The notes: generated from the sequence alone by a model not told the origin. DNA of 63,691 bases, filler included, from Myxococcota bacterium (GCA_023150835.1; 3 parts of 3 records of this genome joined end to end with filler, not necessarily neighbours in it), one strand, 5' to 3'. Positions 7,773 through 48,823 are shown, numbered from the whole stretch's first letter. Translations and numbers: made by a program.

Positions 7773-7890
7773 GCCGTGTTCGCGAGCGTCCAAGCGAGAG
7801 CGTCGCTGATTTGAAAAAGCAGTGATCGTCTCGCCAAAAACGGGGCCAAGGGGCCTTTGGTCCCTTGTGGGGCGTGGGGTGACACCCCAC
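7773..7890 (+). repeat. dispersed ~115-bp structured repeat (family B), copy 1
   Basis: CGTGTTCG..CAAGCG..TTGAAAAA..TCGCCAA..CGGGG.CAAGGG..CCCTTG..TGGGG..CCCC shared with 12435, 30415, 40139. Confidence 0.8.
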
Positions 7891-9524: not shown

Positions 9525-11936
9525 ATGCCGAAAAGCACACCCGTTGAGGCGCTATCTGCTGCAAAACTACGTCGCCGCGTCGATCCTGCGCGCTTACAAG
9601 AACTTGAACGAACGATGACTGCCCCTGTTGATGCGGATCTTGTTGGCCAAGGCCGCGCCGTCGATGCGTTGTCCTTTGGTTTGGATATCGGTGTAAAGGG
9701 CTACAACGTCTTTGTGGTCGGCCCTCCGGGAACGGGGAAGACCAGTACCGTCCTGCGTTTGGTGCGCGAACGCGCTCGCAAAGAATCGCGCCCCCACGAC
9801 ACATGTTATGCCTACAACTTCGACGATCCGCATCGACCGCAAGTGTTGACCTTGCCTTCGGGGGTGGGGGCCAAGCTCGACAAAGAGCTTCAACAAAGTA
9901 CCTTGGCGCTTTCGCGTTCTATCGGACAGGCGTTGACGGACGAACATCTGATCCATCCAACCACCGCCGCCATCGAACAAGCGCGTGAAAAGCTGCGCGA
10001 GATCATGGTCGAACTACAAAAGATCGCCCACAACTACCAGTTGGAGTTGGAATCTGAAGACGATCAGTTTCTGCTCGTTCCGCTGATCGACGGAAAGCCC
10101 ATCGAACCCGAGGTTTTTGAGGAGCTTTCTCCCGAAGTGCAAGTCTCGCTGCAACACAACATCGCGGAGTTTCAACAAGAAGCTGCTCCGTTGATCCACG
10201 CACAGCGCGAGCAAGAGCGCATTATCCACGATGAGACGGCGATTATCGAGCGCCAAGCCATCCAGATCCTTGTCGAAAAGACCTTTGAGTCCCTACTCAA
10301 GCGCTTTTCTGTACATGGCGAAGCGGTGGCGCATTATCTCGAAGGGATGCAAGAATATGTGCTGGATCATTACCGAGAACTGTTGATCGGTGTGCGCGGC
10401 AGCAGCGACCCGATGATGGAACCCCGTTCCATCCGTGAGGCCGAGATCCCAACGGCTTATCGTCTCAATGTCCTCGTCACACACAAACAGCGCGGTGCGC
10501 CCGTGGAATTCGAGAAAGAGCCGACGCTGCCCCATCTCTTTGGCTATCTCGAATACCAAGACACGCAACAAGGGCTTGCTGCCGATCACATGATGATCCG
10601 CGCTGGATCGTTTCATCGCGCCAACGGGGGCTATCTTGTGGTACAGGCCGATGAATTGCTCCGATCTTCCGATGTTTGGTTTGGTTTCAAACGCGCTTTG
10701 CGCCACCGCGAGATCCGTATGCAAGATCTCTGGGCCGATCCTGACAAACCCCGTATCCAAGGGGTTTTGCGCCCGATGGAAGTTCCCACCCATCTCAAGG
10801 TCTTGTTGATCGGGAGCGTGGAAAGCTATTACGCCCTGATGAGCGAAGACGAAGACTTCCGCCGCATCTTTAAGATCAAGGCGGAGTTTGAGCCTTGGTT
10901 GACATGGGACGATGAACACGAAGTCGCGATGATGCGGATGTTGCAGCGTGTGGCGAAAGAGGAACAACTGCTTCCTGTCGATCCTTCGGGAGCGGCGCTG
11001 ATGATCGAAGAAGCGGCCCGAGAGATCGAGTCCCAAAGCAAGATATCTGCTTCGATCGCCGACGGTATCGACTTGTTGTGCGAGGCGGATCATTGGGCGC
11101 GTCACCGAAAAGCCGACGCCATCGCAGCGGATGATGTGCGTCGCGCTTTGTCTTTTCGCAACTATCGCAACGAGATCCTCGAACGCAATATCCACGAATC
11201 CATCAACAAAGGCGAAACGCTGATCGACACAAACGCCCTTGTGATCGGGCAAGTCAACGGTCTGTTGGTGTACGCTGCCGTCGATCATCGCTTTGGTATC
11301 CCCACCAAGATCACAGCACGCACCTACGCAGGCGAAGACGGCATCCTCAACATCGACCGTGAAGCCAATCTATCGGGCATTATCCACGACAAAGGCGCGA
11401 TGATCCTTGTGGGTTATCTTGGGGGCCTTTTTAGCCAGCATCATCCGTTGTCTTTTAGTGCAAGCGTCACCTTCGAGCAGATCTACGGCGAGATCGAAGG
11501 CGACTCCGCTTCGTGCGCCGAGTTATACGCCTTGCTGTCGAGTCTTGCGCAAGCCCCCATCCAACAAGGTATCGCCATCACCGGCTCGATCAACCAACAA
11601 GGTTATCTCCAACCCATCGGCGAAGTGAACCTCAAAGTCGAAGGGATGTTTAAGATCTGCAAACATCGCGGATTGACGGGCAAACAAGGCGTGATCATCC
11701 CCATCCAAAATGCCGAACATCTCATGCTCTCCGAAGAAGTCATCCAAGCCGTCGAACAAGGTCTCTTTCACCTCTGGCCCCTCCACCACGTCGACCAAGG
11801 CATCCCGATCTTGATGGGCCTCAACGCAGGCACCCAACACGAAGACCTCTCTTGGACGCCCTGCTCTCTCTACCAACGCGTCCAGCAGCGTCTTGACCGC
11901 TTCCACGAGATCACTCGCTCTCAAAAAATCCGCTAA
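9525..11936 (+). CDS. Lon-family S16 protease, LonC/AAA_32 type
   Basis: VGQGRA, GPPGTGKT, YNFDDP, HRANGGYL, GQVNGL, catalytic EGDSAS and VNLKVEG. Confidence 0.9.
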   Translation: MPKSTPVEALSAAKLRRRVDPARLQELERTMTAPVDADLVGQGRAVDALSFGLDIGVKGYNVFVVGPPGTGKTSTVLRLVRERARKESRPHDTCYAYNFDDPHRPQVLTLPSGVGAKLDKELQQSTLALSRSIGQALTDEHLIHPTTAAIEQAREKLREIMVELQKIAHNYQLELESEDDQFLLVPLIDGKPIEPEVFEELSPEVQVSLQHNIAEFQQEAAPLIHAQREQERIIHDETAIIERQAIQILVEKTFESLLKRFSVHGEAVAHYLEGMQEYVLDHYRELLIGVRGSSDPMMEPRSIREAEIPTAYRLNVLVTHKQRGAPVEFEKEPTLPHLFGYLEYQDTQQGLAADHMMIRAGSFHRANGGYLVVQADELLRSSDVWFGFKRALRHREIRMQDLWADPDKPRIQGVLRPMEVPTHLKVLLIGSVESYYALMSEDEDFRRIFKIKAEFEPWLTWDDEHEVAMMRMLQRVAKEEQLLPVDPSGAALMIEEAAREIESQSKISASIADGIDLLCEADHWARHRKADAIAADDVRRALSFRNYRNEILERNIHESINKGETLIDTNALVIGQVNGLLVYAAVDHRFGIPTKITARTYAGEDGILNIDREANLSGIIHDKGAMILVGYLGGLFSQHHPLSFSASVTFEQIYGEIEGDSASCAELYALLSSLAQAPIQQGIAITGSINQQGYLQPIGEVNLKVEGMFKICKHRGLTGKQGVIIPIQNAEHLMLSEEVIQAVEQGLFHLWPLHHVDQGIPILMGLNAGTQHEDLSWTPCSLYQRVQQRLDRFHEITRSQKIR

Positions 11937-12218: not shown

Positions 12219-12302
12219 GCCGAAGTGGTGGAATTGGTAGACACACTATCTTGAGGGGGTAGCGGGCGTAAGCTCGTGTCGGTTCGAGTCCGACCTTCGG
12301 CA
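12219..12302 (+). tRNA. tRNA-Leu(GAG)
   Basis: GCCGAAG/CTTCGGC acceptor stem, D-arm, CTATC-TTGAGGG-GGTAG anticodon arm, long variable arm, GTTCGAG T-loop; CCA not encoded. Confidence 0.95.
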
Positions 12303-12309
12303 CACTCTG

Positions 12310-12434: not shown

Positions 12435-12546
12435 CGTGTTCGTGCCGATTCAAGCGACAGAGCTGTTGGTTTGAAAAACAACGATCCCTTCGCCAACACG
12501 GGGTCAAGGGGGCTTTGCTCCCTTGCGGGGTTTGGGGCAGCGCCCT
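12435..12546 (+). repeat. family B repeat, copy 2
   Basis: same conserved blocks as 7773, 30415, 40139. Confidence 0.8.
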
Positions 12547-12578: not shown

Positions 12579-13045
12579 TCACTTGACGATCCAGTTGCCA
12601 CCGCGCCCTTTGGCGGGGATGGTGAGGCGCTGTCGCTGTCGGGTTGCGGAAAATTTTAGCTGAATGCCTGCAAGAGAAAAGCGGATCTCTTCTTCGTTTG
12701 GTGCTTCGGATGTTTGGTTTTTTGGGGCCGCTTCTTCCCAAGGGAAGGCCGCTTCGGAGTCTTCTGGAAGAACACGCACAGCACCCGCGAGATCTTCGCC
12801 AAGATAAGAGAGTAGAAAAAACTCCCTTTCAGTATGGACAGCAGCTTGCTTGGCGATCAGTTCTCGCAGGATTCCTTCGGGTAAAAGGTTGGAAAACCAA
12901 GCGTGTAGGCGTTGGCGTCGGTGGTGGATCGCGTCGAGGTTGTCCAAAAAGATCTGGCCCAAGACGGGTCTTTGCGCCATTTCTTTGTAACTATCGAGAA
13001 AGCGAAAGGATATCCCGGTCTGATCGTTTGCTAGAGTGAGATGGC
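12579..13045 (-). pseudogene. hipA: truncated HipA-family toxin (N-terminal domain plus start of kinase)
   Basis: WFSNLLPEG, LGEDLAGAV, FSLAGIQLKF, WIVK then stop; kinase core and a plausible start are missing. Confidence 0.75.
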
Positions 13046-14111
13046 GGTGGTACGGTGCTTTTTTGAGAGTGCATCGCGCCAAAGCCAACGGACAAGGAGT
13101 TCTTGGCTGCGGGGCAGTGGGGTGGGGTGGTGGTGAAAGAACTTGCCGAGGAGAACAAAGCTTTGTGGGTAAGGCAAAAGCTCGATGTGAGAGAAGGCTG
13201 CCTTTTCTTTTAGAAAGATCACAGCCCGTTTGGCGGCTTCTGTAGTTGAAATAGCGGACTCTTCGAGAACTTGGGCAGTCATGGAAAAGAGGTGCTTGCG
13301 GGAAGGCGTGCGTCCGAGGATAGCGAACAGCAAGCGAAAAAGCAGCGGGTGTGGGACTTTTCCAAAGGACAGGCTTTGAAGGTGTTCTGCGATCTGTGAA
13401 ATGTCGGTGGGAGCGTCTTTTGGGGCGCGTGCGCGGTCGATTGCGTCGAAGACTTCGTCTTGGCGCATTACTTTTGCTGTGGAGTGGGTACGTTCAAAGA
13501 CTTCGCGAGGGATATCTTCGGATGCTGTGCGGAGAATACACGCAGGGATCTCGTATTCACGGAGGCGTTTTGCAACGTGGAAGGCTTGCTGCCGTCGTTC
13601 GAGGCAGGGTTGCTGTTCAAGAAGCCATCGAGAGAGATGTTCTGGATCAAGCAGACGGGTCATCGGAAGCCAACGCGAAGGCTCTGCATCGGTCTGTTTT
13701 TTTATGCGCTTTTTTGAACGGTATGGGATCTTCGTGGTCGAGATCAAAGAAGAAGGCGGAGTCCTCTTCGGAGGGCCAAAACGCATCAAGCAGAGCGAGG
13801 ATGCGCTGTTGCCCATCGACAACCCAAAGAGCATCGTTGCGCTCGGAAGCGTGGATGGAGAAGCGGCCCAAGCGTACAAGGCTCGGAGGAGCGTGTGTTT
13901 CCCAAAACAGCAAGATGCCGATGGGATAACCGCGATAAAGGCTGTCAAGTAGTTTTTGGCGGTCGTGATCTTCCCAACGGAAGGGGTTTTGGAAAGGAGG
14001 GATGCGTACACGCCCGCGCTTCACATCGGCCAAGAGGCTTTCGATCTGAAAGGTTGTTGTTTCGGTGGTGCGGTCGAGATCTTGGGTGGATTTTTTCTTG
14101 TGTTCGTCCAT
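13031..14111 (-). pseudogene. DUF262 (ParB/sulfiredoxin-like) domain protein, frameshifted and probably C-terminally truncated
   Basis: IPPFQ..FRW, LLDSLYRGYPIG, VVDGQQR in 13647-14111; continues in another frame (EVFERTHS) after an A7 run at 13697-13703. Confidence 0.75.
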
Positions 14112-14211: not shown

Positions 14212-15894
14212 TCAGCCTTTTGCCCACTCGCGCAGTTTCTCTTGTGCTTGCTTTTGGACGCCTTTGGGATTTTTTTCCCAACTGCCTGCTTTTTGCAACC
14301 CATCGATGATGGCTTTGGCCCATGCTGCGCGGTGCTCTTTGGGTGGAGCGTTTTGATCGATGCGCTGATTTTTCAGATACAAGAAGAACTTGTCGGGGCG
14401 CGCTGCAAACTCCGCAAAGATCTCTGCAACGCTGTCTTCGATGGAGAATTGCGCTGTTTGCTTGACTTCGGGAGGGCGGCCGAGCAGATGTTCTCGATGG
14501 AACTCCAGCCAACCTTTTTCATCGGCCCCGAACATCTGTCGAAAAGCCCACTCCACAAGAACGGCTTGATCGGAACCCTCTGGAAGACTTCGGAAGGTCT
14601 CGATGTCAGACTTCAAACCCGAAAGTAAGTTGGGAGCGTACCTTTGGGCTGCAAGCTTCCGGCAAAGCGGATGGAGCGTCGAAAAAGAATCCCATATCTG
14701 CCCAAGGTTGTTGGTTTTGACCCACGACGGTGTTGTGTCGACTTCTTGTGGGGCGGATTGGGGGGTGATCTCTGGTGGAGCGCTCAAAGGTTTGCAGGAC
14801 TGTTTCTCCGCCCATCCAAGGGCCTCATCTACAGGCCGGAGTGGGACTTGCGAATGGTCTTTGAACCACGCATGACCGGGAAAACCAAAGGAACGGGGGA
14901 GCCTCTCTGTGGCTTCAAAACAAAGCATCTTGCGTAGATCGTCGAGGGCTTGGTTGTCTTCAAAGAGTTGTTTGCGCTTTTCTTGGATATCTCTGGGGAG
15001 TTGCTGGAGGTAGATGGTTTCGGTGTTGTCGCCCATCTCTTCGCCAAGATAGCGCGCCCTTGCATCTTCGATCACCATCCGTTCGATCTCGATCTTGACC
15101 GAACCAAGCCCGAATGATTTGCCTCGTCCCATCTTGTGCAATAGGCCCGACTCAAGGGCAAGCGCGTAATGAAGCAGCGCCACCAAACGCGCATCAAGCC
15201 CCGCAAAGTTCACTTGAAATACGAACATGGAACCCGCCTTGACGGGATGAAGCGTCGAATAGCCCGTTTGTCCTGATTTGTTCGGGTCGCTCTTCGATAT
15301 CTTCGTTTGTGCGCTCTTTTGGTGGTGATAAAACTTCTGGCGTGAGATCCCCTGTTGAGGGCCATAAAAGGCGGTGTGATGGGCACGTGGAGAGCTTTGG
15401 TAGAGGTACAGGGTCTCGCCTCTTGCGACGAAAACTTGGTTGTCTTTTTGGTAGGGCTTGGCATCGCTGATCTGAACGCGCCCACGAAGCAGCTTGGCGT
15501 TTGGCCCGTGCGTCATGTTGCCAAATAGCGCGCAGGTCGGGCAGATATAGTCCCCGTCACACAAAAACTCTGCTTTATTCGATCCACCCGATACGATCGA
15601 AACACAGCCGCGCCCGGCAAACTCCGCTACGGAACGCACCACGCCCTTGATCGAGGCTCCCGGGATCTGCTGCGCTTCGTGGAAAGGTTTTGATTGGGCT
15701 TGTGCGTTGATCTCAAGTGGTGTATAGGCCACAAGCTTACATTCAAACCGTCCACTGTAACTTTTGGTGCTCCTGTGGGTTCTCGGATCCGAAAAGAAGG
15801 TCGAGATATCGCGTGGATAACAACGGTCGACAGGAGCGGGTCGCTGCAATATACGGAAGGGATACGTCACGTTTGATTTTGGATCTTGGGGCAT
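14212..15894 (-). CDS. cas7: type III-D terminal Cas7-group RAMP (Csm5/TIGR03986-like) with C-terminal extension
   Basis: TPL, IPGASIKGVVRS, CPTCALFG, KFYHHQ, HKMGRGKSFGLGSVKI. Confidence 0.85.
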   Translation of the reverse strand: MPQDPKSNVTYPFRILQRPAPVDRCYPRDISTFFSDPRTHRSTKSYSGRFECKLVAYTPLEINAQAQSKPFHEAQQIPGASIKGVVRSVAEFAGRGCVSIVSGGSNKAEFLCDGDYICPTCALFGNMTHGPNAKLLRGRVQISDAKPYQKDNQVFVARGETLYLYQSSPRAHHTAFYGPQQGISRQKFYHHQKSAQTKISKSDPNKSGQTGYSTLHPVKAGSMFVFQVNFAGLDARLVALLHYALALESGLLHKMGRGKSFGLGSVKIEIERMVIEDARARYLGEEMGDNTETIYLQQLPRDIQEKRKQLFEDNQALDDLRKMLCFEATERLPRSFGFPGHAWFKDHSQVPLRPVDEALGWAEKQSCKPLSAPPEITPQSAPQEVDTTPSWVKTNNLGQIWDSFSTLHPLCRKLAAQRYAPNLLSGLKSDIETFRSLPEGSDQAVLVEWAFRQMFGADEKGWLEFHREHLLGRPPEVKQTAQFSIEDSVAEIFAEFAARPDKFFLYLKNQRIDQNAPPKEHRAAWAKAIIDGLQKAGSWEKNPKGVQKQAQEKLREWAKG

Positions 15895-15913
15895 CGGTCA
15901 CTCCGCTGTCTTT

Positions 15914-16600
15914 TTACCGCCATCGCAAGGCGGCGTATCGTTCAAAACACGACTCTCCGCTTGGATTTTTGTACATCCGAACTTCCAGATGAAGGCGCTT
16001 TTTGGAGCCGCCTTGCTCTGCAAGCAGATCTTTGCTGCATAGCGAAAGTTGTTGTAGCTCGACATGGTATGTGTTGGAGGACGCTTCGCCTCTCGCCTTG
16101 GGTGCCTCGTTTGCATCGGAGGCATCGTCCGTATCGTCGGAAACATCGTCTTTATCGTCGAAAGACTCGTTGCTTTCGCCTGTTTCGCCTGTTTCGTCTT
16201 CGTCGAGGACGCTGTCGTTGTTCTCGTCGGATGAATCGGGCAACACGAACGATGGCGAGCGCTCCAATTCGTTGCGCAGTTCCAAAGAAGCGTCATCGAG
16301 TTCTGTTGGGGCATAAGCCGCGTCTTCGCCGAGATACACTACGCGATACACGCCACGATCCAGCCGCTTCCAGCGCAACTCCCCATCCTTCCAAAAGATG
16401 CGTACGTGCAGGCTGTCTTTGAGTGGGTGGTCCGCTTCTTTGAGGCGCTGCACTTCTTCTTTGAGGCGCTGCACTCGTCCCAGCCATGCTCGATCGATCC
16501 ACTCTGCCCAGATATACGCCTCTTTTGGCCAAGGCGCTTGTTCCAAAAGGGCGACCCACCGATCGGGGGCCAGATCCGAAGATCGTAGGATGCTGCTCAT
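15914..16600 (-). CDS. csx19: Csx19-like protein with acidic insertion
   Basis: RIFWKDGELRWKR motif; lies between Cas7 genes as in III-D; ATGA overlap with upstream gene. Confidence 0.7.
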   Translation of the reverse strand: MSSILRSSDLAPDRWVALLEQAPWPKEAYIWAEWIDRAWLGRVQRLKEEVQRLKEADHPLKDSLHVRIFWKDGELRWKRLDRGVYRVVYLGEDAAYAPTELDDASLELRNELERSPSFVLPDSSDENNDSVLDEDETGETGESNESFDDKDDVSDDTDDASDANEAPKARGEASSNTYHVELQQLSLCSKDLLAEQGGSKKRLHLEVRMYKNPSGESCFERYAALRWR

Positions 16601-17565
16601 CGCCCTCCCCCGCTTGATTCGGGCATCCCGTCGCGCCATACACGTGGCTGCAAGCCTTGATTCCACTGATCTTGCGGAAGGTAGGCTTGAAGAGCGCGTC
16701 GACTCCAAGACAACAGTTGCTTGCGTTTTTCTTCTGTATCCAGCGCGTACACGTTCCAGACGCCATCTTCTTGTGCAGGCGGCAAGATATCATCGAGCGC
16801 TTCAGGTGCTTTCCCAAAGCCATACTGCGCTTTTTCTTGTTTGGTTGCGCGAGCCTCGATGCCAAGGATCTTTTGGCCCGTATAATCGAACGGATAACGC
16901 AAGCTGATATGGCGGATGTGGGCCTTGACATGTCCCAAACCACGAGAGGTCCCCAGTCCCAACGGTAGGCGTTCTTCTTCCATGTCCCGCAGACCCAACG
17001 CCAACAGCCCCAACTGCCACGACTCGAAGTTCTCGATCGCAAGGGAGGTTTGGAAGATCCCTTTGATCACCACCATCAGATCGTACTTTGCGCCTGTGGC
17101 TGCGCCGCCTGTTTTTCGATCGATGGCAACCCCATCGCGCACTTCGGTTTTGACTTCACCTTTTGCGTAGCCGTCCGTAAAAAAGGTACGCCCTCGAAAC
17201 GCCAAAGAGCCAAAGATCTTGCAAGCCATACACGAACACCGATACAACTCAGGCGTCGGAAGTTCCGACTTTTCAAGGCGCTTTCCGCAAGAGCGCTCTG
17301 GATGCTCTGCTTCAAACAGATAAGGCAGACAAACGGGTGTTTTTTCTGGCAAAAGCGTACGCACGATGCGTTCGCAATGGCTGCGTAGCACGCCTTTGAG
17401 GCTGGTTCCCGGGATATAGGGTTTGGCCTCTTCGCCGATGGCGTAAGTGACCACAGGCGACATATCGGGACCGTGAATGCTTTCTTGGCCGCTTTTGATC
17501 AACAGCGGGCCTTTGACTTCGATATCAAATGAGATCTGTGCGCTACACAACAAACGCTTACGCAT
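16597..17565 (-). CDS. cas7: Cas7-group RAMP (Csm3/Csx7-like)
   Basis: PYIPGTSLKGVLRS, CMACKIFGS, RDGVAIDR, LGLGTSRGLG; candidate catalytic Asp (GPDM). Confidence 0.9.
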   Translation of the reverse strand: MRKRLLCSAQISFDIEVKGPLLIKSGQESIHGPDMSPVVTYAIGEEAKPYIPGTSLKGVLRSHCERIVRTLLPEKTPVCLPYLFEAEHPERSCGKRLEKSELPTPELYRCSCMACKIFGSLAFRGRTFFTDGYAKGEVKTEVRDGVAIDRKTGGAATGAKYDLMVVIKGIFQTSLAIENFESWQLGLLALGLRDMEEERLPLGLGTSRGLGHVKAHIRHISLRYPFDYTGQKILGIEARATKQEKAQYGFGKAPEALDDILPPAQEDGVWNVYALDTEEKRKQLLSWSRRALQAYLPQDQWNQGLQPRVWRDGMPESSGGGR

Positions 17566-18355
17566 GGGTGGCCTCCTGTTCCAAACCTTTGCGGAGATCG
17601 GCTTTAATCTCTTCCAATGTAAGGTTTTGCATGGTGCGATCGAGCAGATAAGGCAGCCGATCTTTGGGGCGGCGCAGATCGACGCGCTGGTAGGTGGCGT
17701 CTTTCAGTTCGGCTGCACCGAAGCCTCGCGTCGTCATCCCGCCCAAGTGGACTTCTCGCGTCCATTCGAGGAAGGTCATCTGTAGCAGCCGCTCTTCTTT
17801 CTCGGTGATATTTTCGGCTTGCAGCAAAAAGTCGAATTGTGCGCCCGCAGGCACCACATCGTAATCGTACTTGACGTTCGGAACCGCTGTTCCTGCGTCT
17901 CGATCGATCCCGACACCATCGCGACGTTCGAGGGCACCTGCCCACGAAGAACAAGGCCCATCTTGAAAATACACTTTTCCTTTGGCGAGGCTCGAACCAA
18001 ATAGCTTGCAGATATCACACAGATGCTTGTCGAGGATCGATTCGATCTCGTGTTCGCTTTTGGCGCGGTGTAGGGCCTCTAGGTATCTTTTGGAGAGCTC
18101 TTGGTTTCCGCCCGCGCAGACGCCTTGATGTTTATCCAAAAAGCAGGTCGAGGCTCCCAAAAAATGACACAGACGCTCTGTGGTCGAACGGAAGACGCCT
18201 TTGAGCGAAGAACCCGGCAACAGCGGCTTGCCTGCATAATCCAGCAATACGGACATATCCGTCCCTGACTCGCTTTCGTTGCCTGTTCCAAGATGAAACG
18301 CCGCCCGAAATACCAATTTCCCCGAAAGGCGGACGCGATTTTGTAAGTGCAGCAT
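17558..18355 (-). CDS. cas7: Cas7-group RAMP (Csx7-like)
   Basis: HLGTG..TD, LPGSSLKGVFRS, CDICKLFGS, RDGVGIDR, LGGMTTRGFG; start reset to MLHLQ after GAGGAG. Confidence 0.9.
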   Translation of the reverse strand: MLHLQNRVRLSGKLVFRAAFHLGTGNESESGTDMSVLLDYAGKPLLPGSSLKGVFRSTTERLCHFLGASTCFLDKHQGVCAGGNQELSKRYLEALHRAKSEHEIESILDKHLCDICKLFGSSLAKGKVYFQDGPCSSWAGALERRDGVGIDRDAGTAVPNVKYDYDVVPAGAQFDFLLQAENITEKEERLLQMTFLEWTREVHLGGMTTRGFGAAELKDATYQRVDLRRPKDRLPYLLDRTMQNLTLEEIKADLRKGLEQEATHA

Positions 18356-18425
18356 ATCGTCTCCTCGATGTCTGGTGCAGATCAAAGCACGCATCTGCGT
18401 TTGCCTTTGTGCGTGCCGTCTCGTT

Positions 18426-19022
18426 CTATCTCTTTGATGGCGGCTTGCCTTTCGACGCCTCTTGTTTTTTGGGCTCGTCTTTTCGTTGTTCGCCTTTTCC
18501 CTTGGGTTGGGCATTTGGGGTGTTGGCGCCTTGGTTGCCCTTGGGTTGGGCATTTGGGGCGCTGGTGGCTTGGTGGTTTTTGGAAGGATTGTCTTGGCTG
18601 ACGAATTGGGCTGCGAAGGTCAGTTTGGCTGCGACTCGTCCAACGAACAACAAACACAGCGCATCTTGAAGGGGCGGAGCGACTTGTTCGCACAAACCTT
18701 TGAGCGTGATCTGCCCGTTGTCTTGGGGCTGTTCGAGATATCGGCCCCACAACAGCCAAAAGGATTCGTAATTGCCTTCTTTGGTCTTGCCCGGATGCTG
18801 TTTTTCGTAGGCTTCTTTGTTTTTGCGATCGCGTTGTTTTTGATGGTTGACCAGCTCTCGCAAGCCTTTTTGCCCTGCGCCTGTGGTATGCGATACCAAC
18901 GCATGCAGTTGTGAACGCGAGATCGCTTTGTTTGGCGGGTTGGCTTGATAAGACTGATAAAACGCCTCGATAGAGGCTTCCAAAAGATCGTCGAAGGCTG
19001 CGGAACGAAGAGACTGCGCCAT
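18426..19022 (-). CDS. second small-subunit (Cas11/Csm2-like) helical protein
   Basis: ISRSQLHAL..LVNHQKQR..FW pattern; position within the cas operon. Confidence 0.55.
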   Translation of the reverse strand: MAQSLRSAAFDDLLEASIEAFYQSYQANPPNKAISRSQLHALVSHTTGAGQKGLRELVNHQKQRDRKNKEAYEKQHPGKTKEGNYESFWLLWGRYLEQPQDNGQITLKGLCEQVAPPLQDALCLLFVGRVAAKLTFAAQFVSQDNPSKNHQATSAPNAQPKGNQGANTPNAQPKGKGEQRKDEPKKQEASKGKPPSKR

Positions 19023-19026
19023 GACG

Positions 19027-19512
19027 TTATCTTCCCTTTTTGTCGATGGTTTCGTAAAGATAGGCGCTGTGAAGGTGACGTAAAGCAACCGAAGCGATCT
19101 TGAGACGCAAGGTGTTTTTCTGCTCGCCTTCTGCTTCGCCGATCTCTTGGCTGAACTGTTTTTGGTGCTCGCCCCATGCTTTGTCAGCTTTTTGACGGAG
19201 GCTCTCTAAAAAGCCGAGAGTGGCCTCACCCAGCGTCTGCTTCTTTCCGTCGTCCAAAGTCAGCCAGCCTTCTTGCTTTGACTTTTCTTTCCCTGTTTGG
19301 CGTTGGATGTAGGCCGTGATGTCGTGGAATCGTCGTGTCGAAAAGCCAAGAACTTCGAGGTGAGAGACTTGTGTCTTGCTTTTGCCGCTGCCGAAAGCTT
19401 TGGCCATGTGGCGCGCAAGTCTTCGGAGTTCCTTGAGCAGATCTTCGGACTCAAGCACTCCGTTGGCGGTTTTTTCAAAGGCAAGGGTGTATTCGCTGCT
19501 AAAGTTAGGCAC
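19027..19512 (-). CDS. cas11: small subunit Cas11 (Csm2-like)
   Basis: SKTQVSHL..ITAYIQRQTGK..GW; GTG start after AAGGAG; follows csx10. Confidence 0.65.
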   Translation of the reverse strand: MPNFSSEYTLAFEKTANGVLESEDLLKELRRLARHMAKAFGSGKSKTQVSHLEVLGFSTRRFHDITAYIQRQTGKEKSKQEGWLTLDDGKKQTLGEATLGFLESLRQKADKAWGEHQKQFSQEIGEAEGEQKNTLRLKIASVALRHLHSAYLYETIDKKGR

Positions 19513-19528
19513 GGGCGTTCTCCTTTTT

Positions 19529-20734
19529 TCAAACAACCAAAGGCAGATGGATCGGGGCGCAGACGATGATCTGCCCAAAGCCTTCTTCGCGTCTTTCGCC
19601 GATCCCCTGTGCTTCAAGTTCTTGTAGCTTCGACAACAGATCTTTTCGTGGCAGCGGGCTTTTGGCGTACAGAACAGAGCCTGCCGAAAGCCCCCATTCA
19701 TCGTCCTTGTGGATACGGTGGACCACGTTCCACGTCGCGAGGTGAACCGATTTGACGTGCTGATAGGGATCGTTTAGCTCGACGATCTCGCCGACCGCTA
19801 CTTGTAGATCCAGATGATTCCGTAAGTAGCGATCCAAGAGGATGGTTGGCGTTCGCAACAGGATCGCAAAAGCCCCGTCTCCTTGGCTTTTTTGAAACTG
19901 TGCAAGTCGCGCCTCCAACGCAGGGCGCTGTTGTTTTTGCAGCGTCATACGAACCTGCCCAAACCCCCGTGATCGCTCGCTCCCAAGGAACATCGGCGTT
20001 TTACAAAGCTCTTGGAGCTTTTCGAGATAGCGCTCTTCCACCCGACCCACCCCCGCAAAAACAGCAGGCTGCTTTTTGAGAAGGCTTGTCTCGTTTGCCC
20101 CCGCTGCTTCGTTCCGCCACACATCATCCACCGCAGAACGGCCATACAAGATCCCACCCGCTGTACTGCCCGTTGTGGCGTCCAGCCCTACACCCATGCG
20201 GCTTCGATAACTCACGCGGGGCGGCATCTCTTGGCTCTTTTGGTAGGCGTACACATAACCCGCAAAAGGCTTGCGATCTTCCCCACAGCCCGCAGGCTTC
20301 GCATTGGACCCTGTTTTGGCGGAAAGAGTGTGGTTGCATTGAAAGCGTTTGCCGAGTTCTTCTTCTTTTCCTGCGGCGTAGTAGCACAACAAGTCTTCGA
20401 CGCCGTGTTTGTTCGGACCGCCGTGGCGTTTGCATGAAACTGTTGTCAGCGGATAGGGGCTGCTTTGCCAAGAACCCGGATACAAGAAGGGATAGCGTTG
20501 TTGGCCTTGTGTGAACAGTCGATAAAAATCGTCCCCAAGCCCATAACGCCGAATCCATGCGCTTGCAAACATTCCGCGCAAGGTACTGCCCGGGATATAA
20601 CCAAGGGTCTCGGGAAATTGTTCGTTGCGCTTCTTTTTGATCGTAAAGGGCGATTGCAAGGTCGCTTCAAAGGCTACATCGATCCACATGATGCGCGTCC
20701 TCTCTCTTGTTTTCGGTCTCTCTTTGATCGACAA
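19529..20734 (-). CDS. csx10: Cas5-group RAMP Csx10
   Basis: YIPGSTLRG, LGSERSRGFG, GIGERREEGFG double Gly-rich loops. Confidence 0.85.
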   Translation of the reverse strand: MSIKERPKTRERTRIMWIDVAFEATLQSPFTIKKKRNEQFPETLGYIPGSTLRGMFASAWIRRYGLGDDFYRLFTQGQQRYPFLYPGSWQSSPYPLTTVSCKRHGGPNKHGVEDLLCYYAAGKEEELGKRFQCNHTLSAKTGSNAKPAGCGEDRKPFAGYVYAYQKSQEMPPRVSYRSRMGVGLDATTGSTAGGILYGRSAVDDVWRNEAAGANETSLLKKQPAVFAGVGRVEERYLEKLQELCKTPMFLGSERSRGFGQVRMTLQKQQRPALEARLAQFQKSQGDGAFAILLRTPTILLDRYLRNHLDLQVAVGEIVELNDPYQHVKSVHLATWNVVHRIHKDDEWGLSAGSVLYAKSPLPRKDLLSKLQELEAQGIGERREEGFGQIIVCAPIHLPLVV

Positions 20735-20749
20735 ACACGGCTGCTTTTT

Positions 20750-21526
20750 TTAGGATTTCTGCCGCTGTGCTTCCCAGATATCTGTTGTTTCGGAGGCCAG
20801 CGGAGCCATCAAAAAAGCCATCTGCTCGCGCAACGAGCCTTTGTTGTTTAACTCGTAAGGATCTGGATCAAGGCCGATGGTTTGGACTTGCGCGACGATG
20901 CTGCCTGCGCCTGTCGACCGATGCCCGCCGATGTACGAAAGCATACACAGCCCGCCCAACAACAGCGCTAGTGCTGGATCTTGGCTGTCTTTGTTCAATG
21001 TCCGCCAGCACCAGATCTCGCCTTCCATCGTTTCACGCAGCGCGTACACGGTGTCGAAGAGGCTTTGATGGCGGGGCCTGCCCAACCGACGGTCGATCTG
21101 GATGCGTTTGCGCACCGACTCTGCATGGTTAGAAGATGTCAGCTTCACATCCGAAAAGACCGCATGGATCTCTTCTTGTGCAGGGACGCCAAAGATCGCA
21201 TTCAGCCATGTTTGGTAATACAAGTGCGTGAATTTGCCTTCGTGGTGTCGGGTGAGTGAAAGCCCCATCGCTCGGCAGAGATCCGTACACTTGTCTCGAA
21301 GATTTCCCTTGAGTGTCGACCCCGGGATATAAGGTCGACCATGCCCGTCCTTGACAAAGGTGAGATCCACGCCCCTGCGCCCTACGCCTGAACCACAAAA
21401 TAGCCGATCCATCGACATATTTTCAGGTTCTTCTGAGAGCGGTGTACGCTCTTTTTGCGGAGATTGCGGAACCAAACGATAGCGTAGATGGATCTGAGTC
21501 AAGCCTGTCGTCTGCTCGGTACGCAT
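20750..21526 (-). CDS. cas7: Cas7-group RAMP (Csm3-like)
   Basis: GSG..VD, PYIPGSTLKGNLR, IFG, IQIDR, IGGHRSTGAG. Confidence 0.85.
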   Translation of the reverse strand: MRTEQTTGLTQIHLRYRLVPQSPQKERTPLSEEPENMSMDRLFCGSGVGRRGVDLTFVKDGHGRPYIPGSTLKGNLRDKCTDLCRAMGLSLTRHHEGKFTHLYYQTWLNAIFGVPAQEEIHAVFSDVKLTSSNHAESVRKRIQIDRRLGRPRHQSLFDTVYALRETMEGEIWCWRTLNKDSQDPALALLLGGLCMLSYIGGHRSTGAGSIVAQVQTIGLDPDPYELNNKGSLREQMAFLMAPLASETTDIWEAQRQKS

Positions 21527-21529
21527 GGC

Positions 21530-23203
21530 CTACTCCTTTTCAACGGGTTGGGGGCGACTGGCGGGCTCGCCTGCTTTGAGCCGATTTGCGGACTCGTTGG
21601 CTTCCAGATGAGCCGAAGGTTCGGCGATGTACGGATAAAGCGTCGCAAAATCCAACGCCGAGGTACTTCGACGAGCCTTTGCTTTGGTGCTGCGCCAAGG
21701 TGGGGCATCCATGCCGAGTTGCTCGAAGAATTCCAGCAATGCGTTGCGTTGATCTGCATGAAGCCGTGTCAACAAGCGATAGGTCTCAAATTCTGTGCGG
21801 CTGCCTTCTTGAAAGAGCAGATCAGCCAGTTGATTGACGCGCCCTTTGCGTAAACCTGCCTCAATTAAGCGGTCGCATTGCTTTTGAAATCGTGCTGCTT
21901 CCGAGCAAGAGCGCGGCCATTCGGTCAAAGAGGTGCCATCTTTCAACCGCAGATCTTCTTCTCGGATATCCGCGAGATCGACGTAGTGTGTTTGGGACAC
22001 ATCCGCGAGATCGAGAAAGGGTTCATTTTTTGGGGAGGCTTCCTTTGTGGCCAGTTTTTCCGAAGATGACCCTTTTGAGGCCAAACCCAAAGACGTGTTT
22101 CTGTGCTCGGCTTCGACCTCGGACTTGCGCCGTTTGGCGCTCTTGAGGAGCTCTTCGGCTTGCTCCAAGACGACGCGAAAGGGCTGGGTGGAACGTGCGA
22201 TCGCGATACCAAAAGAGATCGTTAATCCGTTCCCGCAGTGCGTTTTGAAAAAGTCTTTGTCTTTGAACTCTTTTTGGGTGAGTTCTTGGAAGCGTTGAGC
22301 GGCTTGGATCGCAAAGCGCAGCGCAAGATCCACCCGCAGCACCATCACAAGGTCATCCCCCCCAAGCAACAAGATATCCGCAGGCAGGATCAGCCTTTTT
22401 TTTCGCAAATAGGGGGCCGGCAACAGCTTCTTCAACGTCTCATAGGTCGCTTGACGCAAGGCTCCATCCACCGTCTTTGAAAAGATGCGATAGGTTTCTT
22501 CGTTTGGGATATCTTTGACGATACGGCCCATCGCATCCCCGTCTGCGTACAGCAGCGCGATGTAATCTTTTCTCGTGATCGAGGCTGCGCCGATATCATT
22601 GAAGCTCTCAGGACGCCACAGATTCTTCTTTGCGTCTTGTTGGCCGTAGTATTCCAGCAATTCTTTCCATGCTGGCCCGTTTCCACGATTCAACCGCTTT
22701 TCGTTGCATACGCGGCAGATCTTTTTGTCTTTGTCTTTGGTGCTGTACTCGGCTGGGTTCTGGGCGCAACTGGCGCAAGCACGCCACATCCCGAAGTGAC
22801 TTCGTGGGTAGGCTTGGGCTTTTTGGCTATAACGTCGCTTCGCAAGGCGACTGTGTAGGCTGCTCACCTCTTTTTTGAAGTCGCCCCGTTGCTCGCAAAT
22901 CGCGTATTCGATAGACAATCCGCCGCCGCTCTTTGATGAAACCCGACGTTGGTAACTCTCCAAAAAATCCAAGATCTCTCTTTCGTTCGGGCAGTCCTTG
23001 ACACAAAACAGCGCACTGCCGCCTCCCGCGTAAATCAACCGATGACGCGGTTCGGGAAAGGCTTGTTTGAGCGAGCGTTCAAGGGTGTCACGGTTGAGTT
23101 GATCGAGGATCGCCGAGCCACCCCGAATCTCGCCCGCGGGGCTTGTTCCAAAGACAAAGGACTTGATGGAAGGAAAGTCTATCAATACCAAGCGATCTGT
23201 CAC
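21530..23203 (-). CDS. cas10: Cas10 (type III-D), no HD domain, intact palm GGDD
   Basis: IKSFVF..EIRGGSAILD, YAGGG, CxxC..CxxC, YADGDAMG, LGGDDL, AEELLKSAK. Confidence 0.9.
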   Translation of the reverse strand: MTDRLVLIDFPSIKSFVFGTSPAGEIRGGSAILDQLNRDTLERSLKQAFPEPRHRLIYAGGGSALFCVKDCPNEREILDFLESYQRRVSSKSGGGLSIEYAICEQRGDFKKEVSSLHSRLAKRRYSQKAQAYPRSHFGMWRACASCAQNPAEYSTKDKDKKICRVCNEKRLNRGNGPAWKELLEYYGQQDAKKNLWRPESFNDIGAASITRKDYIALLYADGDAMGRIVKDIPNEETYRIFSKTVDGALRQATYETLKKLLPAPYLRKKRLILPADILLLGGDDLVMVLRVDLALRFAIQAAQRFQELTQKEFKDKDFFKTHCGNGLTISFGIAIARSTQPFRVVLEQAEELLKSAKRRKSEVEAEHRNTSLGLASKGSSSEKLATKEASPKNEPFLDLADVSQTHYVDLADIREEDLRLKDGTSLTEWPRSCSEAARFQKQCDRLIEAGLRKGRVNQLADLLFQEGSRTEFETYRLLTRLHADQRNALLEFFEQLGMDAPPWRSTKAKARRSTSALDFATLYPYIAEPSAHLEANESANRLKAGEPASRPQPVEKE

Positions 23204-23331
23204 GGATCTTCTCCTTCGTTAAAGGCTACGCATCAACGCCCTTGTCGCGGCGTGGGCGACTCGGCGTCTATCCTCTCCAAAAAGCAAAACGTCGTGTCGG
23301 TTTGCTTTCTGACTTGTTTTCGTCTCGCTTT

Positions 23332-24114
23332 TCAGTTGGGGACTGGGGGGGCTGGATCGGTGGTGGGTTGGGGGCGTTTTTGCTTTGCGGCCTTGACCGC
23401 TTCTTCGAGACCTGCACGAAGCTTGCGTGCATTTTCGGCAAACGAAGGCTCATCTTTGGTGTAATCGTCGATCGCACGAAGAAAGGAGTGCGTGGCGTTG
23501 ATCCATTCTCGGCGGGCGGTATGTTCGCGGGTCGATGGATCACTTTTCCAATCGAGGTCTTTGCGGGTTTGAACTTGGGCATCGAGCTGTTTGCCTGCTT
23601 CGATGATCTGGTCAAGTACCCAAGCGAGGCTGTGCGTCCCCAGTTTGCACTGCTCCAACACCGCTAGTTTGTCGGGGTATTGTTGCGAACGCTCTGCAAG
23701 TCGAAGCGCGATGCCAGCTTCTTCGTCGAAGGAGCGTTGGGTCACTTGGAGTCCATCGGGCAAGAAAAAATCCAGCGCGTCTTGAAGTGTACGTTGTTGC
23801 TCGGTGCGCTCTTGCGTGTTGGGTGATCGCAGGGAGGCGAGGTGGGTGAACGCTTGCAACGCCGTCGACAAGCAGCGGTGTCCTTCGTCAAATAGCTGAT
23901 CAAAGGTTTGTAGAGCATCGCGCACTTTTTGTTTTTCGAGGCTGTAGGGATCGATATCTTTTTGCGTGCTTTGTCGCAACGCTTCGCAGCGTTGTTCCAG
24001 CCGAGGCAAGTGAACCGCCAAATAAGCATGCGGCTCGATCAGGCTTCTTTGTGGTCCTGTCCATGTTTGACTTTGTACCAACATCTTTTCCGTACTCAGC
24101 GCCTTTAGATCCAT
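23332..24114 (-). CDS. hypothetical all-helical protein with Pro-rich tail
   Basis: 260-aa ORF, GGAG RBS before MDLKAL; no recognised motif. Confidence 0.7.
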   Translation of the reverse strand: MDLKALSTEKMLVQSQTWTGPQRSLIEPHAYLAVHLPRLEQRCEALRQSTQKDIDPYSLEKQKVRDALQTFDQLFDEGHRCLSTALQAFTHLASLRSPNTQERTEQQRTLQDALDFFLPDGLQVTQRSFDEEAGIALRLAERSQQYPDKLAVLEQCKLGTHSLAWVLDQIIEAGKQLDAQVQTRKDLDWKSDPSTREHTARREWINATHSFLRAIDDYTKDEPSFAENARKLRAGLEEAVKAAKQKRPQPTTDPAPPVPN

Positions 24115-24316
24115 CGGATATCTCCGCCGTGTTGAGGGGAACGGGTCGAGAGGTTGCTTTTTTTCGGCCCGTTTTCGTTGTCTGGTTTCTTCGGGGGATT
24201 GTCGTGCTTTCTTCTCTTCTTTGTTATCTGATCTGGCTTCTTGAGCGCAAGACATTTCTTTTTGTTTTGCTGTGGCGGTCTTGTTCTTCGGCATCTTCTT
24301 GATCATCCACAGGGAA

Positions 24317-24523
24317 AGGGGGTTCGCGACCGACTTTTTTGTTGAGCGTCAACAGAGAGGGGGGTTCGTGACCGACTTTTTTGTTGAGCGTCAACAGAGA
24401 GGGGGGTTCGTGACCGGCTTTTTTGTTGAGCGTCAACAGAGAGGGGGGGGCGTGACCGACTTTTTTGTTGAGCGTCAACAGAGAGGGGGGTTCGTGACCG
24501 ACTTTTTTGTTGAGCGTCAACAG
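24317..24523. repeat. 42-bp tandem repeat, at least 5 copies, running into the gap
   Basis: GTTGAGCGTCAAC at 24341, 24383, 24425, 24467, 24509; no unique spacers. Confidence 0.95.
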
Positions 24524-24623
24524 NNNNNNNNNNNNNNNNNNNNNNNNNNNNNNNNNNNNNNNNNNNNTTAATTAATTAANNNNNNNNNNNNNNNNNNNNN
24601 NNNNNNNNNNNNNNNNNNNNNNN
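24524..24623. other. assembly gap / artificial linker
   Basis: N run containing TTAATTAATTAA (stops in six frames). Confidence 0.98.
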
Positions 24624-25380: not shown

Positions 25381-25458
25381 CTCCAACGCCTAAGCTCACC
25401 CGAAAAACTGCCGTAGCGAAGCGAAGGCAGGTTTTTCGGGTGCAGCGCCTTGTTAGGC
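25381..25458 (-). mobile_element. integron attC recombination site
   Basis: minus strand GCCTAAC (R'')-GCTGCACC (L'')-palindrome-GGTGAGC (L')-GTTGGAG (R'); gene stop TAA lies inside R''. Confidence 0.9.
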
Positions 25459-26049
25459 ACAACAGCCCGCCTGGGTTTGAATGGATGGACACGGCACAGA
25501 GCCATAAGAGCAATAAACGCAGCAATGTCCTTGCTTTGGCCGTAACACTGTTTTGCAACCTGAACACTCGTAGAAAAACTGGCAACTGTCTGTGGGCATT
25601 GTTTCTAGTTGGGATTTGCCGCAACTTGGACAAGTAATAACCGACTGAAGCACAACCGGCTTGGCAGATGGCACGGGATTGCAGGTATTGCACTGCTTTG
25701 CAGCACGATGATTGAGAATGGCGGCAATAACCATGCCGACTAAACCGCCGTAAAGCCACGCGGCCTGATGAAGTAGATGGTAATAAGCAAGGATTGCTGC
25801 AAATGCTGCCGCCATGACCAGCAGGGGTAAAAGCTGCTTGTGACGGCGAAATGCAACCCCTACACCCAGCAATGCCAGCAGCGCGAAGCCCTGAAACACC
25901 CAACTTAAAACGGACTGATAAGGCGCAAGAAAACCAAGACCAAGAGATGCACCTACCGAGGCCAGCAAAGGAAGACAGCAGGGAGTAGCGGCTGCCAGCG
26001 CAGCAAAAACGCCGCCGATGGTGCCTGCTTTATCAAGGTAACTACGCAT
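25453..26049 (-). CDS. merC: MerC-type mercury transporter fused to a GDCCVxC Cys-rich domain (gene cassette)
   Basis: LDKAG..PCCLP..GASLGLGFL, FRRH, four TM segments; C-terminal ITCPSCG..MPTDSCQFFYEC..GHCCVYCSYGSVPCP. Confidence 0.8.
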   Translation of the reverse strand: MRSYLDKAGTIGGVFAALAAATPCCLPLLASVGASLGLGFLAPYQSVLSWVFQGFALLALLGVGVAFRRHKQLLPLLVMAAAFAAILAYYHLLHQAAWLYGGLVGMVIAAILNHRAAKQCNTCNPVPSAKPVVLQSVITCPSCGKSQLETMPTDSCQFFYECSGCKTVLRPKQGHCCVYCSYGSVPCPSIQTQAGCCA

Positions 26050-30198: not shown

Positions 30199-30414
30199 GC
30201 TACACATCCTTTTTGCTTGGGGTTCTTGCTTGCAAAGAGGCACCGAAAACATCTCTAACGGCGCGTCACCACACAACACTCAACAGTCGCCGCAGTGCAA
30301 GCCGTTGTAGCGCACAGACAGAAGAAACGCAAGATCCTACGCCGCCCCCGCAAGGAACAACGCACTTCGGAGTGACGGGGTTGACACATCGGAGTGCGCG
30401 GTTGGACAAAAACC

Positions 30415-30532
30415 CCCGTGTTCGCGCCACTTCAAGCGGCAGAGTCGTTGGGTTGAAAAACGCCTATTCGCTCCGCCAATACGGGGTCAAGGGAGCGTGG
30501 CTCCCTTGTGGGTCGTGGGGCAAAGCCCCGCA
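30415..30532 (+). repeat. family B repeat, copy 3
   Basis: conserved blocks; CCCCGTGTT pairs with AATACGGGG. Confidence 0.8.
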
Positions 30533-33125: not shown

Positions 33126-33194
33126 AGTATGCACGAGAGAGACCTCTCAGTATGCACGAGAGAGACCTCCCAGTATGCACGAGAGAGACCTCTC
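33126..33194. repeat. 23-bp direct repeat x3 in a divergent intergenic region
   Basis: AGTATGCACGAGAGAGACCTC at 33126, 33149, 33172. Confidence 0.95.
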
Positions 33195-33366
33195 AAATCA
33201 ACAACGGTCTCTGCTATGGCCTCCCAAGAGTACGGACGAGGCACAAAACAAAGGCTTGGCAAGGCGCGTCAAACAGGTTAAGAGCAAAGAGCGCAGGAAC
33301 ATCTCGGAAGGCTGGGAAGTGTCTTGCTTTGTCGTGTGTGCTGTGTTTTTTGTGGCGGAGTCTTCG

Positions 33367-40138: not shown

Positions 40139-40256
40139 TGTGGGGTTTCACCCCACACCCCACAAGGGAGCTTTGCCCCCTTGACCCCCGTGTTGGCGAA
40201 ATGATCGTCGGTTTTTCAAACCAACCGCTGTGTCGCTTGAAATGCCGCGAACACGG
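40139..40256 (-). repeat. family B repeat, copy 4 (inverted)
   Basis: reverse complement matches the 12435-12546 blocks. Confidence 0.8.
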
Positions 40257-48447: not shown

Positions 48448-48547
48448 NNNNNNNNNNNNNNNNNNNNNNNNNNNNNNNNNNNNNNNNNNNNTTAATTAAT
48501 TAANNNNNNNNNNNNNNNNNNNNNNNNNNNNNNNNNNNNNNNNNNNN
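48448..48547. other. assembly gap / artificial linker
   Basis: N run containing TTAATTAATTAA. Confidence 0.98.
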
Positions 48548-48755: not shown

Positions 48756-48823
48756 TGGTAGGATTGGTGCAGTTTGGTGGGGCAGGGTATCCCCCACACC
48801 AGCGAGCCGATGGCACTGGCCGA

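Follow-up and report, generated by a model that had tools for sequence, protein, structure and literature searches.

The DNA analysed here is a 63,691-nt stretch from a Myxococcota bacterium (GCA_023150835.1), hereafter the window, in whose coordinates all positions are given unless another sequence is named. Between 14212 and 23203, nine open reading frames (ORFs) on the minus strand fill the sequence in the order cas10-cas7-csx10-cas11a-cas11b-csx7-csx7-csx19-cas7. We found this locus to be an intact CRISPR-Cas module of type III-D1, of a known sort and not a new sort of system. It is likely to be a functional and conventional III-D1 effector module, with a CRISPR array that most likely lies beyond the end of its contig.

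Gene content of the type III-D1 operon

The operon was annotated by family scans with PADLOC, Pfam and NCBIfam, some of the NCBIfam scores lying under the curated cut-offs. The first gene, cas10 (21530-23203, 557 aa), matched PADLOC Cas10 (E = 8.3e-69), Pfam Cas10-Cmr2_palm2 (1.3e-19) and the Protein Data Bank (PDB) chains 8s9t_C and 8bmw_K. It is followed by a Csm3-like gene, cas7-1 (20750-21526; RAMPs 7.2e-13; PADLOC Csm3 / Cas7_IIId), and by csx10, the Cas5 of type III-D (19529-20734), which matched PADLOC Cas5_IIId (2e-32) and TIGR02674 (4.7e-31, 108 bits against a curated cut-off of 177). Two small paralogous genes come next: cas11a (19027-19512 within ORF 19027-19701, 161 aa), whose start was refined to a GTG at 19512 after an AAGGAG, and cas11b (18426-19022 within ORF 18426-19088, 198 aa), with a start refined to the ATG at 19022. 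Both csx7-1 (17558-18355 within ORF 17558-18553, 265 aa, ATG at 18355 after GAGGAG) and csx7-2 (16597-17565, 322 aa) scored over the cut-off for TIGR02581 (3.7e-37 and 5.1e-37, respectively). The csx19 product (15914-16600 within ORF 15914-16708, start refined to the ATG at 16600) has 228 aa counted from Met37 of the ORF, the residue from which the relatives' proteins align, and contains a long acidic low-complexity insertion; it matched a profile of 31 relatives (2.3e-23) and TIGR03984 (8.7e-8, 32 bits against a cut-off of 35). The last gene (14212-15894) encodes a terminal Cas7 of the TIGR03986 type, with about 334 aa followed by a C-terminal extension of about 226 aa; residues 113-324 matched the family at 2e-37, with 130 bits against a cut-off of 161. 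The four RAMP (Cas7) genes are separate and none is fused. As read from the DNA, each gene of the operon forms an ORF by itself and has its own start and ribosome-binding site.

A close relative of the operon was available in L065, a metagenome contig whose Cas10 is 90% identical. Codon comparison of the two gave ratios of nonsynonymous to synonymous substitution (dN/dS) of 0.04-0.29 in all eleven segments compared, and no frame shift was seen in the nine cas genes. Judged from this comparison, the operon genes are all under purifying selection and their function would be retained.

The two small ORFs had no hit in the family scans, and searching both families against the PDB by sequence gave chance-level hits only. 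The cas11a cluster comprises 42 related loci besides the window (profile E = 2e-22), and cas11b matched the profiles of three clusters, c17, c4 and c6 (3.4e-14, 1.9e-8 and 8.6e-5), which between them account for 31 related loci. A comparison of the two families by hhalign showed them to be homologous (probability 96.8%, E = 2.7e-10). An AlphaFold2 (AF2) model of Cas11a had a mean predicted local distance difference test (pLDDT) score of 92.3, and its top VIA-align superposition was onto 8bmw_A (Z 9.1, root-mean-square deviation 2.1 over 92 residues, 26% identity), alongside 9arw_F (Z 8.4), residues 625-780 of 8s9t_A (Z 8.2, 143 residues) and Cmr5 (Z 7.3). The Foldseek E-value was weak (about 0.4), and Z scores of 9.1-7.3 are moderate for a helical bundle; the assignment carries weight because all seven top rows are Cas11-type chains or domains. 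On the strength of this model and of the homology between the two families, we identify the two small ORFs as Cas11 paralogues. Cas11b has in addition a basic repetitive tail, where a 39-nt duplication (18499-18574) encodes a repeated PNAQPKG-type motif and where L065 differs from the window by indels (13 gaps).

Three of the Cas7 proteins carry an aspartate at the positions of the catalytic residues of the solved III-Dv complex, reported in PMC11026444 to be D26, D33 and D246. Cas7-1 D54 aligns with D26 of 8s9t_A (Cas7-Cas5-Cas11), and Csx7-1 D33 (numbered from the refined start) and Csx7-2 D34 align with D33 and D246 of 8s9t_D (Cas7-2x). No catalytic Asp was seen in the terminal Cas7. This last protein covers only positions 335-566 of the 568 in TIGR03986, and the large insertion therefore appears to be absent from it.

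Type III-D systems are divided in PMC13294483 into III-D1, with separate Cas7 genes, III-Dv and III-D2, and Csx19 is described in PMC11026444 as unique to III-D1 and III-Dv. The operon resembles III-D1 in its separate signature genes in the usual order, its intact Cas10 cyclase motif, its three Asp-bearing Cas7 proteins, its Csx19, and in having relatives that carry Cas6, arrays and CARF effectors. It differs in that its contig has no cas6, array or effector and in the 226-aa extension of the terminal Cas7; the presence of two distinct cas11 paralogues is common to about half of the related loci. The Synechocystis III-Dv operon, given in PMC11026444 as cas10, cas7-cas5-cas11, cas7-2x, csx19 and cas7-insertion, is colinear with ours. 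It also provides the best PDB match to Cas10 and the three aligned catalytic Asps, has a Csx19 as well, and contains the Cas7-Cas5-Cas11 segment (residues 625-780, Z 8.2) onto which Cas11a superposes. In contrast to it, cas7, cas5 and cas11 as well as the two csx7 genes are unfused in the window, there is an extra cas11b, and the terminal Cas7 appears to be without the large insertion; the Synechocystis flanks, as described there, hold cas6-2a, adaptation genes, an array and Csm6/Csx1.

The III-D2 system is reported in PMC13294483 to consist of Cas7x3, Cas7-5, Cas10, CorA and a toxin-antitoxin, and to make S-adenosylmethionine-AMP (SAM-AMP) and SAM-AMP2. Our operon shares with it a Cas10 that lacks the HD domain and starts at palm1, a Cas7 of the TIGR03986-type lineage and a toxin-antitoxin-type gene nearby, here a HipA fragment only. 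It differs in having no fused Cas7x3 or Cas7-5 and no CorA that we could find, in possessing Csx19 and Cas11 genes, and in the Cas10 residues, with GGDD instead of GGDE and Arg instead of Gln at the acceptor-site column. The Sulfolobus III-D Csm complex (8BMW) supplied the best structural match for Cas11a (8bmw_A), and its Cas10 and Cas7 paralogues match by sequence; unlike ours, it is archaeal and its Cas10 has 829 aa, with about 310 residues ahead of palm1. A preliminary description, made from the DNA alone, had proposed the nine-gene order and the type III-D assignment, an HD-less Cas10 starting at the palm and keeping GGDD, a candidate catalytic Asp in three Cas7 proteins, and a likeness to an unfused Synechocystis III-Dv layout. 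The ORF calls, the three sets of family scans and the alignments bear these points out, every III-Dv fusion being split here and one small gene added.

Cas10 and the predicted second messenger

Cas10 comprises palm1, a zinc finger, palm2 and a C-terminal helical domain. In the alignment with 8bmw_K, an 829-aa chain deposited as type III-D Cas10, its residue 5 falls on residue 315, from which it follows that the protein starts at palm1 and has no HD region. A search for homologs gave 209 at E <= 1e-5, and the 120 listed among them were 362-569 aa long; a Cas10 without HD is normal for the family concerned. The GGDD motif (residues 281-284) was invariant in all 33 aligned family members.

The best-matching solved homolog is the III-Dv Cas10 8s9t_C (profile E = 4.9e-35), and III-Dv Cas10 is reported to make cyclic oligoadenylate (cOA), which activates Csx1 (PMC11026444). 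HD-less III-D2 Cas10 is reported to make SAM-AMP for a CorA effector (PMC13294483). According to the same source, D253 and K379 of L. lactis Csm1 bind the triphosphate of the acceptor ATP, and the SAM-using III-D2 Cas10 has E8 and Q186 at those sites, their counterparts in the B. fragilis enzyme being D70 and E151. By profile alignment, our Cas10 places D9 at D253 and R124 in the K379 column, where 32 of the 33 members have Lys or Arg. The hallmark of SAM users, a neutral or acidic residue (Q186 or E151) in place of the triphosphate-binding Lys, is thus replaced by Arg. No CorA-like protein was found on the operon contig, either as a Pfam or PADLOC hit or as a multi-pass hydrophobic ORF, and none occurred among the recurrent neighbours of related operons, where singleton neighbours were only partly scanned and a rare CorA could escape. 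Because the acceptor-site residues fit ATP, no CorA-like protein was found and the closest solved homolog makes cOA, the messenger is most likely cOA, which we clearly favour over SAM-AMP. The preliminary description had named both molecules; the first agrees with the acceptor site, and the second is not favoured.

The array was most likely lost at an assembly break

Two N44-TTAATTAATTAA-N44 spacers (24524-24623 and 48448-48547) divide the window into three joined contigs (1-24523, 24624-48447 and 48548-63691), apparently arranged from longest to shortest, and the operon lies on the first of them, contig A. The form of the TTAATTAATTAA linker suggests an artificial six-frame stop spacer. As the contigs have been joined artificially, the sequence past 24523 is not the true neighbour of the operon, and no reading across either junction is valid. 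The database entry for this Cas10 likewise lists 24523 as the longest contig. The end of contig A lies 1.3 kb from cas10 on the upstream side and falls within a tandem repeat of 42-nt units (24318-24523, 4.9 copies), each with a small palindrome of the TTGA-N3-TCAA type. The unit is kept, with changes, in L065, and these repeats may form a row of protein-binding sites between an array leader and the gene upstream of the operon.

No array, cas6, CARF, Csm6-HEPN, Csx3, cas1 or cas2 was found anywhere in the 63.7-kb window, so that the preliminary description was right in seeing no effector, array or cas6. The relatives' family profiles, run against all frames of the window, gave no match to Cas6 or an effector, and PADLOC found nothing cas-related on the other two contigs. 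The tandem repeats were considered as CRISPR arrays (the 77-nt one at 48265-48447 and the 41-42-nt ones) and rejected, their units being near-identical throughout and without spacers.

L065 matches the window from 24263 to 14211 at about 90.5%; the match takes in the upstream gene and all of the operon and breaks off right after the last stop codon. Its 41-nt tandem repeats (L065 531-861) are about 80% similar to window 24296-24521, the upstream architecture being conserved up to the contig end. Beyond these repeats, L065 continues with about 400 nt of AT-rich leader-like sequence and, at its end, two exact 37-nt repeats around a 38-nt spacer, with a partial spacer before them. The reverse complement of this repeat ends in GGATTGAAAC, and the repeats of 7 of 13 arrays beside related operons end in ATTG(A/C)(A/G)AC; the L065 repeat is therefore of the same class as the related arrays, read away from the operon. 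It had no match in the window at up to 3 mismatches. On the other side, L065 carries a Cas6 gene about 2 kb downstream of the last cas7 (Pfam 4.9e-13, PADLOC 1e-42); neither this Cas6 nor the downstream flank matched the window.

Window DNA (22800-24300) was present in 20 of the 24 public runs listed, which come from activated sludge and wastewater (10 studies). Four runs (X1, X20, X5 and X6) were compared with L065 1-530 at 80% likeness. In X1, a 387-nt contig covered L065 105-493 with 39 differences (about 90% identity) and ended in the repeat; there were no differences within the repeat part, and the divergence was the same as that of the operon. Unitigs consisting of the repeat only had depths of 151 and 19, against 10.8 for the flank, which points to a repeat present in many copies. 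The variant letters of X1 were found again in X20 and X5, two runs from other studies. These data are consistent with an array that was most likely lost at the assembly break, since a tandem repeat together with CRISPR repeats breaks short-read graphs. The missing array had been taken for a trait of the locus; the contig break, the array edge in L065 and the leader-plus-repeat piece in the same samples argue against that view.

Cas6, arrays and CARF effectors beside related operons

A profile scan with one genome per species yielded 64 related loci, with flanks of up to 10 kb, often less, on each side. Flanking genes were annotated where their cluster occurred in at least two loci, together with a few singletons, and the effector counts are lower bounds for this reason. 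CARF-type genes lay beside at least 27 of the 64 operons, among them 18 of the 29 with loci of 18 kb or more; Cas6 lay beside at least 13 and arrays beside 13. The CARF types comprised CARF-HEPN, CARF-HEPN-CARF, NE0113-type CARF, CARF-Lon, CARF-LuxR and TM-CARF, and Csx3, Csx15, Csx21, Cas1 and Cas2 likewise recurred in the flanks. Cas6 adjoins the operon in the three closest of the 64 loci (L001, L013 and L025), the nearest relative in the genome collection having a Cas10 identity of only 39%.

Three of the related III-D1 operons have CARF-Lon genes beside them (L013 3277-4533 on the minus strand, L028 8187-9512, and L045; PADLOC CARF_LON, 1.5e-58 to 1.5e-113). These neighbours suggest protease-based signalling in part of the III-D1 family.

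A clade-specific extension of the terminal Cas7

With 560 aa, the terminal Cas7 exceeds the 340-390 aa of most relatives, and its C-terminal extension is the only unusual feature of the operon. The extension had no Pfam hit at E <= 10 and no atlas hit, and no homolog of 124-396 aa was found, longer fused forms not having been searched. It is constrained (dN/dS 0.21 against L065) and was seen only in the window, L065, L001 and L013. Homology between the extensions of L001 and L013, which are similar in size, is evident from a match of 33% over 218 aa (E = 5e-35), and hhalign of the window's extension against them gave a probability of 86.6% (E = 4.5e-6, 131 columns); the window's extension is probably homologous to these two. 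Single-protein III-E effectors recruit a TPR-CHAT protease. By analogy, the extension could act as a docking or effector domain of a new kind, through which the III-D1 complex would contact a protein partner directly and which would partly replace diffusible-messenger effectors in this Myxococcota-like clade; we rate this idea as very unlikely.

In L001 (17846-21005), the closest relative in the genome collection, cas6 directly follows the operon and is succeeded by a 265-aa gene with no assigned family and then by a 430-aa TPR protein, two genes beyond cas6, which matches the PADLOC CRISPR-associated TPR model (2.8e-44).

Neighbouring genes and other features of the window

The gene upstream of cas10 (23332-24114, minus strand) encodes an all-helical protein of 260 aa counted from Met65 of its ORF. 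HMMER found 93 relatives at E <= 1e-3, most of them 230-330 aa long and aligning from query residue 65, which sets the real extent of the gene at 23332-24114, and the protein has 260 aa in L065 too. A word-indexed search returned a single homolog of 97% only. An atlas search pointed to DUF6261; Pfam gave no such hit at E <= 10, and 2 of 42 members match DUF6261. The AF2 model from the single sequence (pLDDT 43.8) was too low for use. A profile of the family found no member in any of the 64 related III-D loci; weak hits to the Cas11a proteins of L027 and L011 (3.5e-4 and 1.5e-3) were taken as helical-protein noise. The family has 8 dispersed copies in a Sorangium genome (G004), the nearest about 0.5 Mb from its III-D locus, and 6 weak copies on six contigs of the L001 genome. 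The gene is constrained (dN/dS 0.08), and its tie to the operon was seen only in two close lineages. It is probably a member of a dispersed multi-copy family distantly related to DUF6261, and not a cas gene.

Downstream of the operon lies a DUF262/GmrSD-like gene on the minus strand (13031-14111), split over two frames, with matches to GmrSD_N (3.8e-19, 13647-14111) and PADLOC PDC-M55C (4.3e-26, 13031-14011). The split lies near an A-rich run at about 13700-13720 and may reflect either a true frame shift or an error of sequencing. The next gene (12579-13088, minus strand) encodes 169 aa with the N-terminal domain of HipA only (Couple_hipA 3.6e-15) and no kinase domain after it, its ORF stopping at 12579 beside a dispersed repeat element and a tRNA-Leu (GAG) gene (12219-12303, plus strand) that is followed by a terminator-like hairpin. 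The preliminary description had suggested that these neighbours might be hidden effectors; the distribution of the upstream family, absent from all 64 III-D loci, the split of the DUF262 gene and the truncation of HipA speak against it. Further away, 9525-11936 (plus strand) encodes an 803-aa Lon-like AAA+ protease with AAA_32, LonB lid, LonC helical and Lon_C domains, which also gave weak BrxL-like hits. We asked whether it might be a CalpL-type effector and set this idea aside, since the protein has no CARF or SAVED domain and its gene lies on the other strand and beyond the tRNA.

The dispersed element just mentioned is about 85-100 nt long and resembles repetitive extragenic palindromic (REP) or miniature inverted-repeat transposable (MITE) elements. 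Copies lie at 30409-30493, 12435-12511, 40155-40256 and 7774-7818, and at 877-961 of L065; they are 75-87% similar, intergenic, and present on two contigs of the window as well as in L065. Other intergenic tandem repeats occur at 40264-40458 (41-nt unit, about 5 copies), 48265-48447 (77-nt, 2.4 copies) and 33126-33195 (23-nt, about 3 copies); counting the one at 24318-24523, two of the four (that one and 48265-48447) run into contig ends. A promoter and terminator scan gave sites no more numerous than in shuffled sequence.

Elsewhere on contig A, 2581-6558 (minus strand) encodes a 1325-aa UvrD-type helicase whose helicase part matches PADLOC GajB models (8.4e-50), a match that may be generic; its first 720 or so residues had no family hit, and the gene contains 33-nt coding tandem repeats (3247-3364 and 4890-4990). 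The second contig carries a gene that joins a MerC-like membrane protein to a GDCCVxC domain (25453-26049, minus strand; NCBIfam NF041374, 2.6e-27, a (seleno)protein domain). Four Ser/Thr protein kinase genes are present (34289-36895, 37040-39145, 57395-58789 and 58786-60444), one of which encodes a PEGA domain and contains a coding tandem repeat of 33-nt units (35793-35953). Together with the nearest Cas10 relatives and the family of the gene upstream of cas10, these kinases point to a probable origin in Myxococcota.

Proposed mode of action and alternative readings

We propose that the nine proteins would assemble on one CRISPR RNA (crRNA) and that most subunits of the resulting complex would be unique. 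Its base would consist of Cas10, Csx10 (Cas5) and Csx19, its backbone of Cas7-1, Csx7-1, Csx7-2 and the terminal Cas7, and its minor filament of Cas11a, Cas11b and the C-terminal domain of Cas10. Binding of a complementary transcript would lead to cutting of the RNA at three sites, one for each Asp-bearing Cas7, and would also activate the palm domains of Cas10, which would most likely make cOA from ATP. The crRNAs would most likely come from an array a few hundred bases past 24523, on the opposite strand, and we infer that Cas6 and a CARF-type effector are encoded elsewhere in the genome and act in trans. Most type III systems appear to rely on Cas6 in trans, according to PMC12669027.

Several points weigh against this proposal. 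Genes for cas6 and for CARF, SAVED-like, HEPN, Csx3 and CorA-like proteins were all missing from the 63.7 kb, the supply of Cas6 and effector in trans is our assumption, and the flank that carries cas6 in L065 is replaced in the window by unrelated, broken genes. The choice of messenger draws on profile alignments, not on structure or assay. As for the array, the leader-plus-repeat contig of X1 is not physically joined to the operon contig, because the tandem repeat lies between them, so that the link is our inference; X1 may also be the source run of the window, with a second strain in it being possible. Run X6, which holds window DNA, gave no contig on L065 1-530, which is no proof of absence.

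The operon might instead be a stand-alone RNA-cutting module with no messenger-activated effector and perhaps no dedicated cas6, in which cleavage of the transcript at three sites is the immunity and any cOA either goes without a receiver or acts on a host protein not recognised as its target. Modules of this kind exist among the relatives, where 6 of the 29 long loci had no Cas6, array or CARF gene within 10 kb; effector and cas6 were equally missing from the window, and RNA cleavage and signalling are reported to be separable in III-D2 (PMC13294483). In III-D2, however, defence is described in the same source as needing the messenger and not RNA cleavage. Moreover, the strict conservation of the GGDD motif and of the residues at the ATP site, together with purifying selection on Cas10 (dN/dS 0.14), argues for a cyclase that is in use. 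With CARF genes in 18 of 29 long related loci and a cas6 in the 90% relative L065 as well, we consider the stand-alone module unlikely.

Alternatively, Cas10 could make another messenger, SAM-AMP or a different conjugate, and the sensor could be a partner not recognised as such, for example the DUF6261-like product of the upstream gene or the extension of the terminal Cas7. HD-less III-D2 Cas10 enzymes are reported to make SAM-AMP (PMC13294483), the upstream gene travels with the operon in both close lineages at a dN/dS of 0.08, and the extension is constrained and belongs to no known family. Against these points stand the K379 column, with Arg in our Cas10 and Lys or Arg in 32 of 33 members instead of the Gln or Glu of SAM users, the failure to find a CorA-like membrane protein on contig A or among the recurrent neighbours of relatives, and the upstream family itself, absent from 64 of 64 III-D loci and present in many dispersed copies in two Myxococcota genomes; we find this reading very unlikely. 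We give even less credence to the idea that the operon is a decaying remnant, which a rearrangement has separated from array, cas6 and effector and which is in the course of being lost. It would account for a downstream flank unlike that of L065, with a frame-shifted DUF262 gene and a truncated HipA beside a tRNA and a dispersed repeat element, but not for nine intact cas genes free of frame shifts (dN/dS 0.04-0.29 against L065), nor for an upstream architecture conserved to the contig end and a matching leader-plus-repeat piece in the same samples. A functional III-D1 module with its array beyond the contig end remains the reading that we prefer.

The locus carries a caution for the study of type III systems, as a seemingly orphan operon in a draft genome sat 1.3 kb from a hidden contig junction, and the array was recoverable from a close relative and raw assemblies. 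The extension of the terminal Cas7 is the sole feature that might repay experiments. With this locus, the III-D1 family gains a divergent member from activated-sludge bacteria (Cas10 39% identical to the nearest genome-collection relative), whose fully unfused subunits and two Cas11 paralogues help to reconstruct the origin of the III-D1, III-Dv, III-D2 and III-E fusions.

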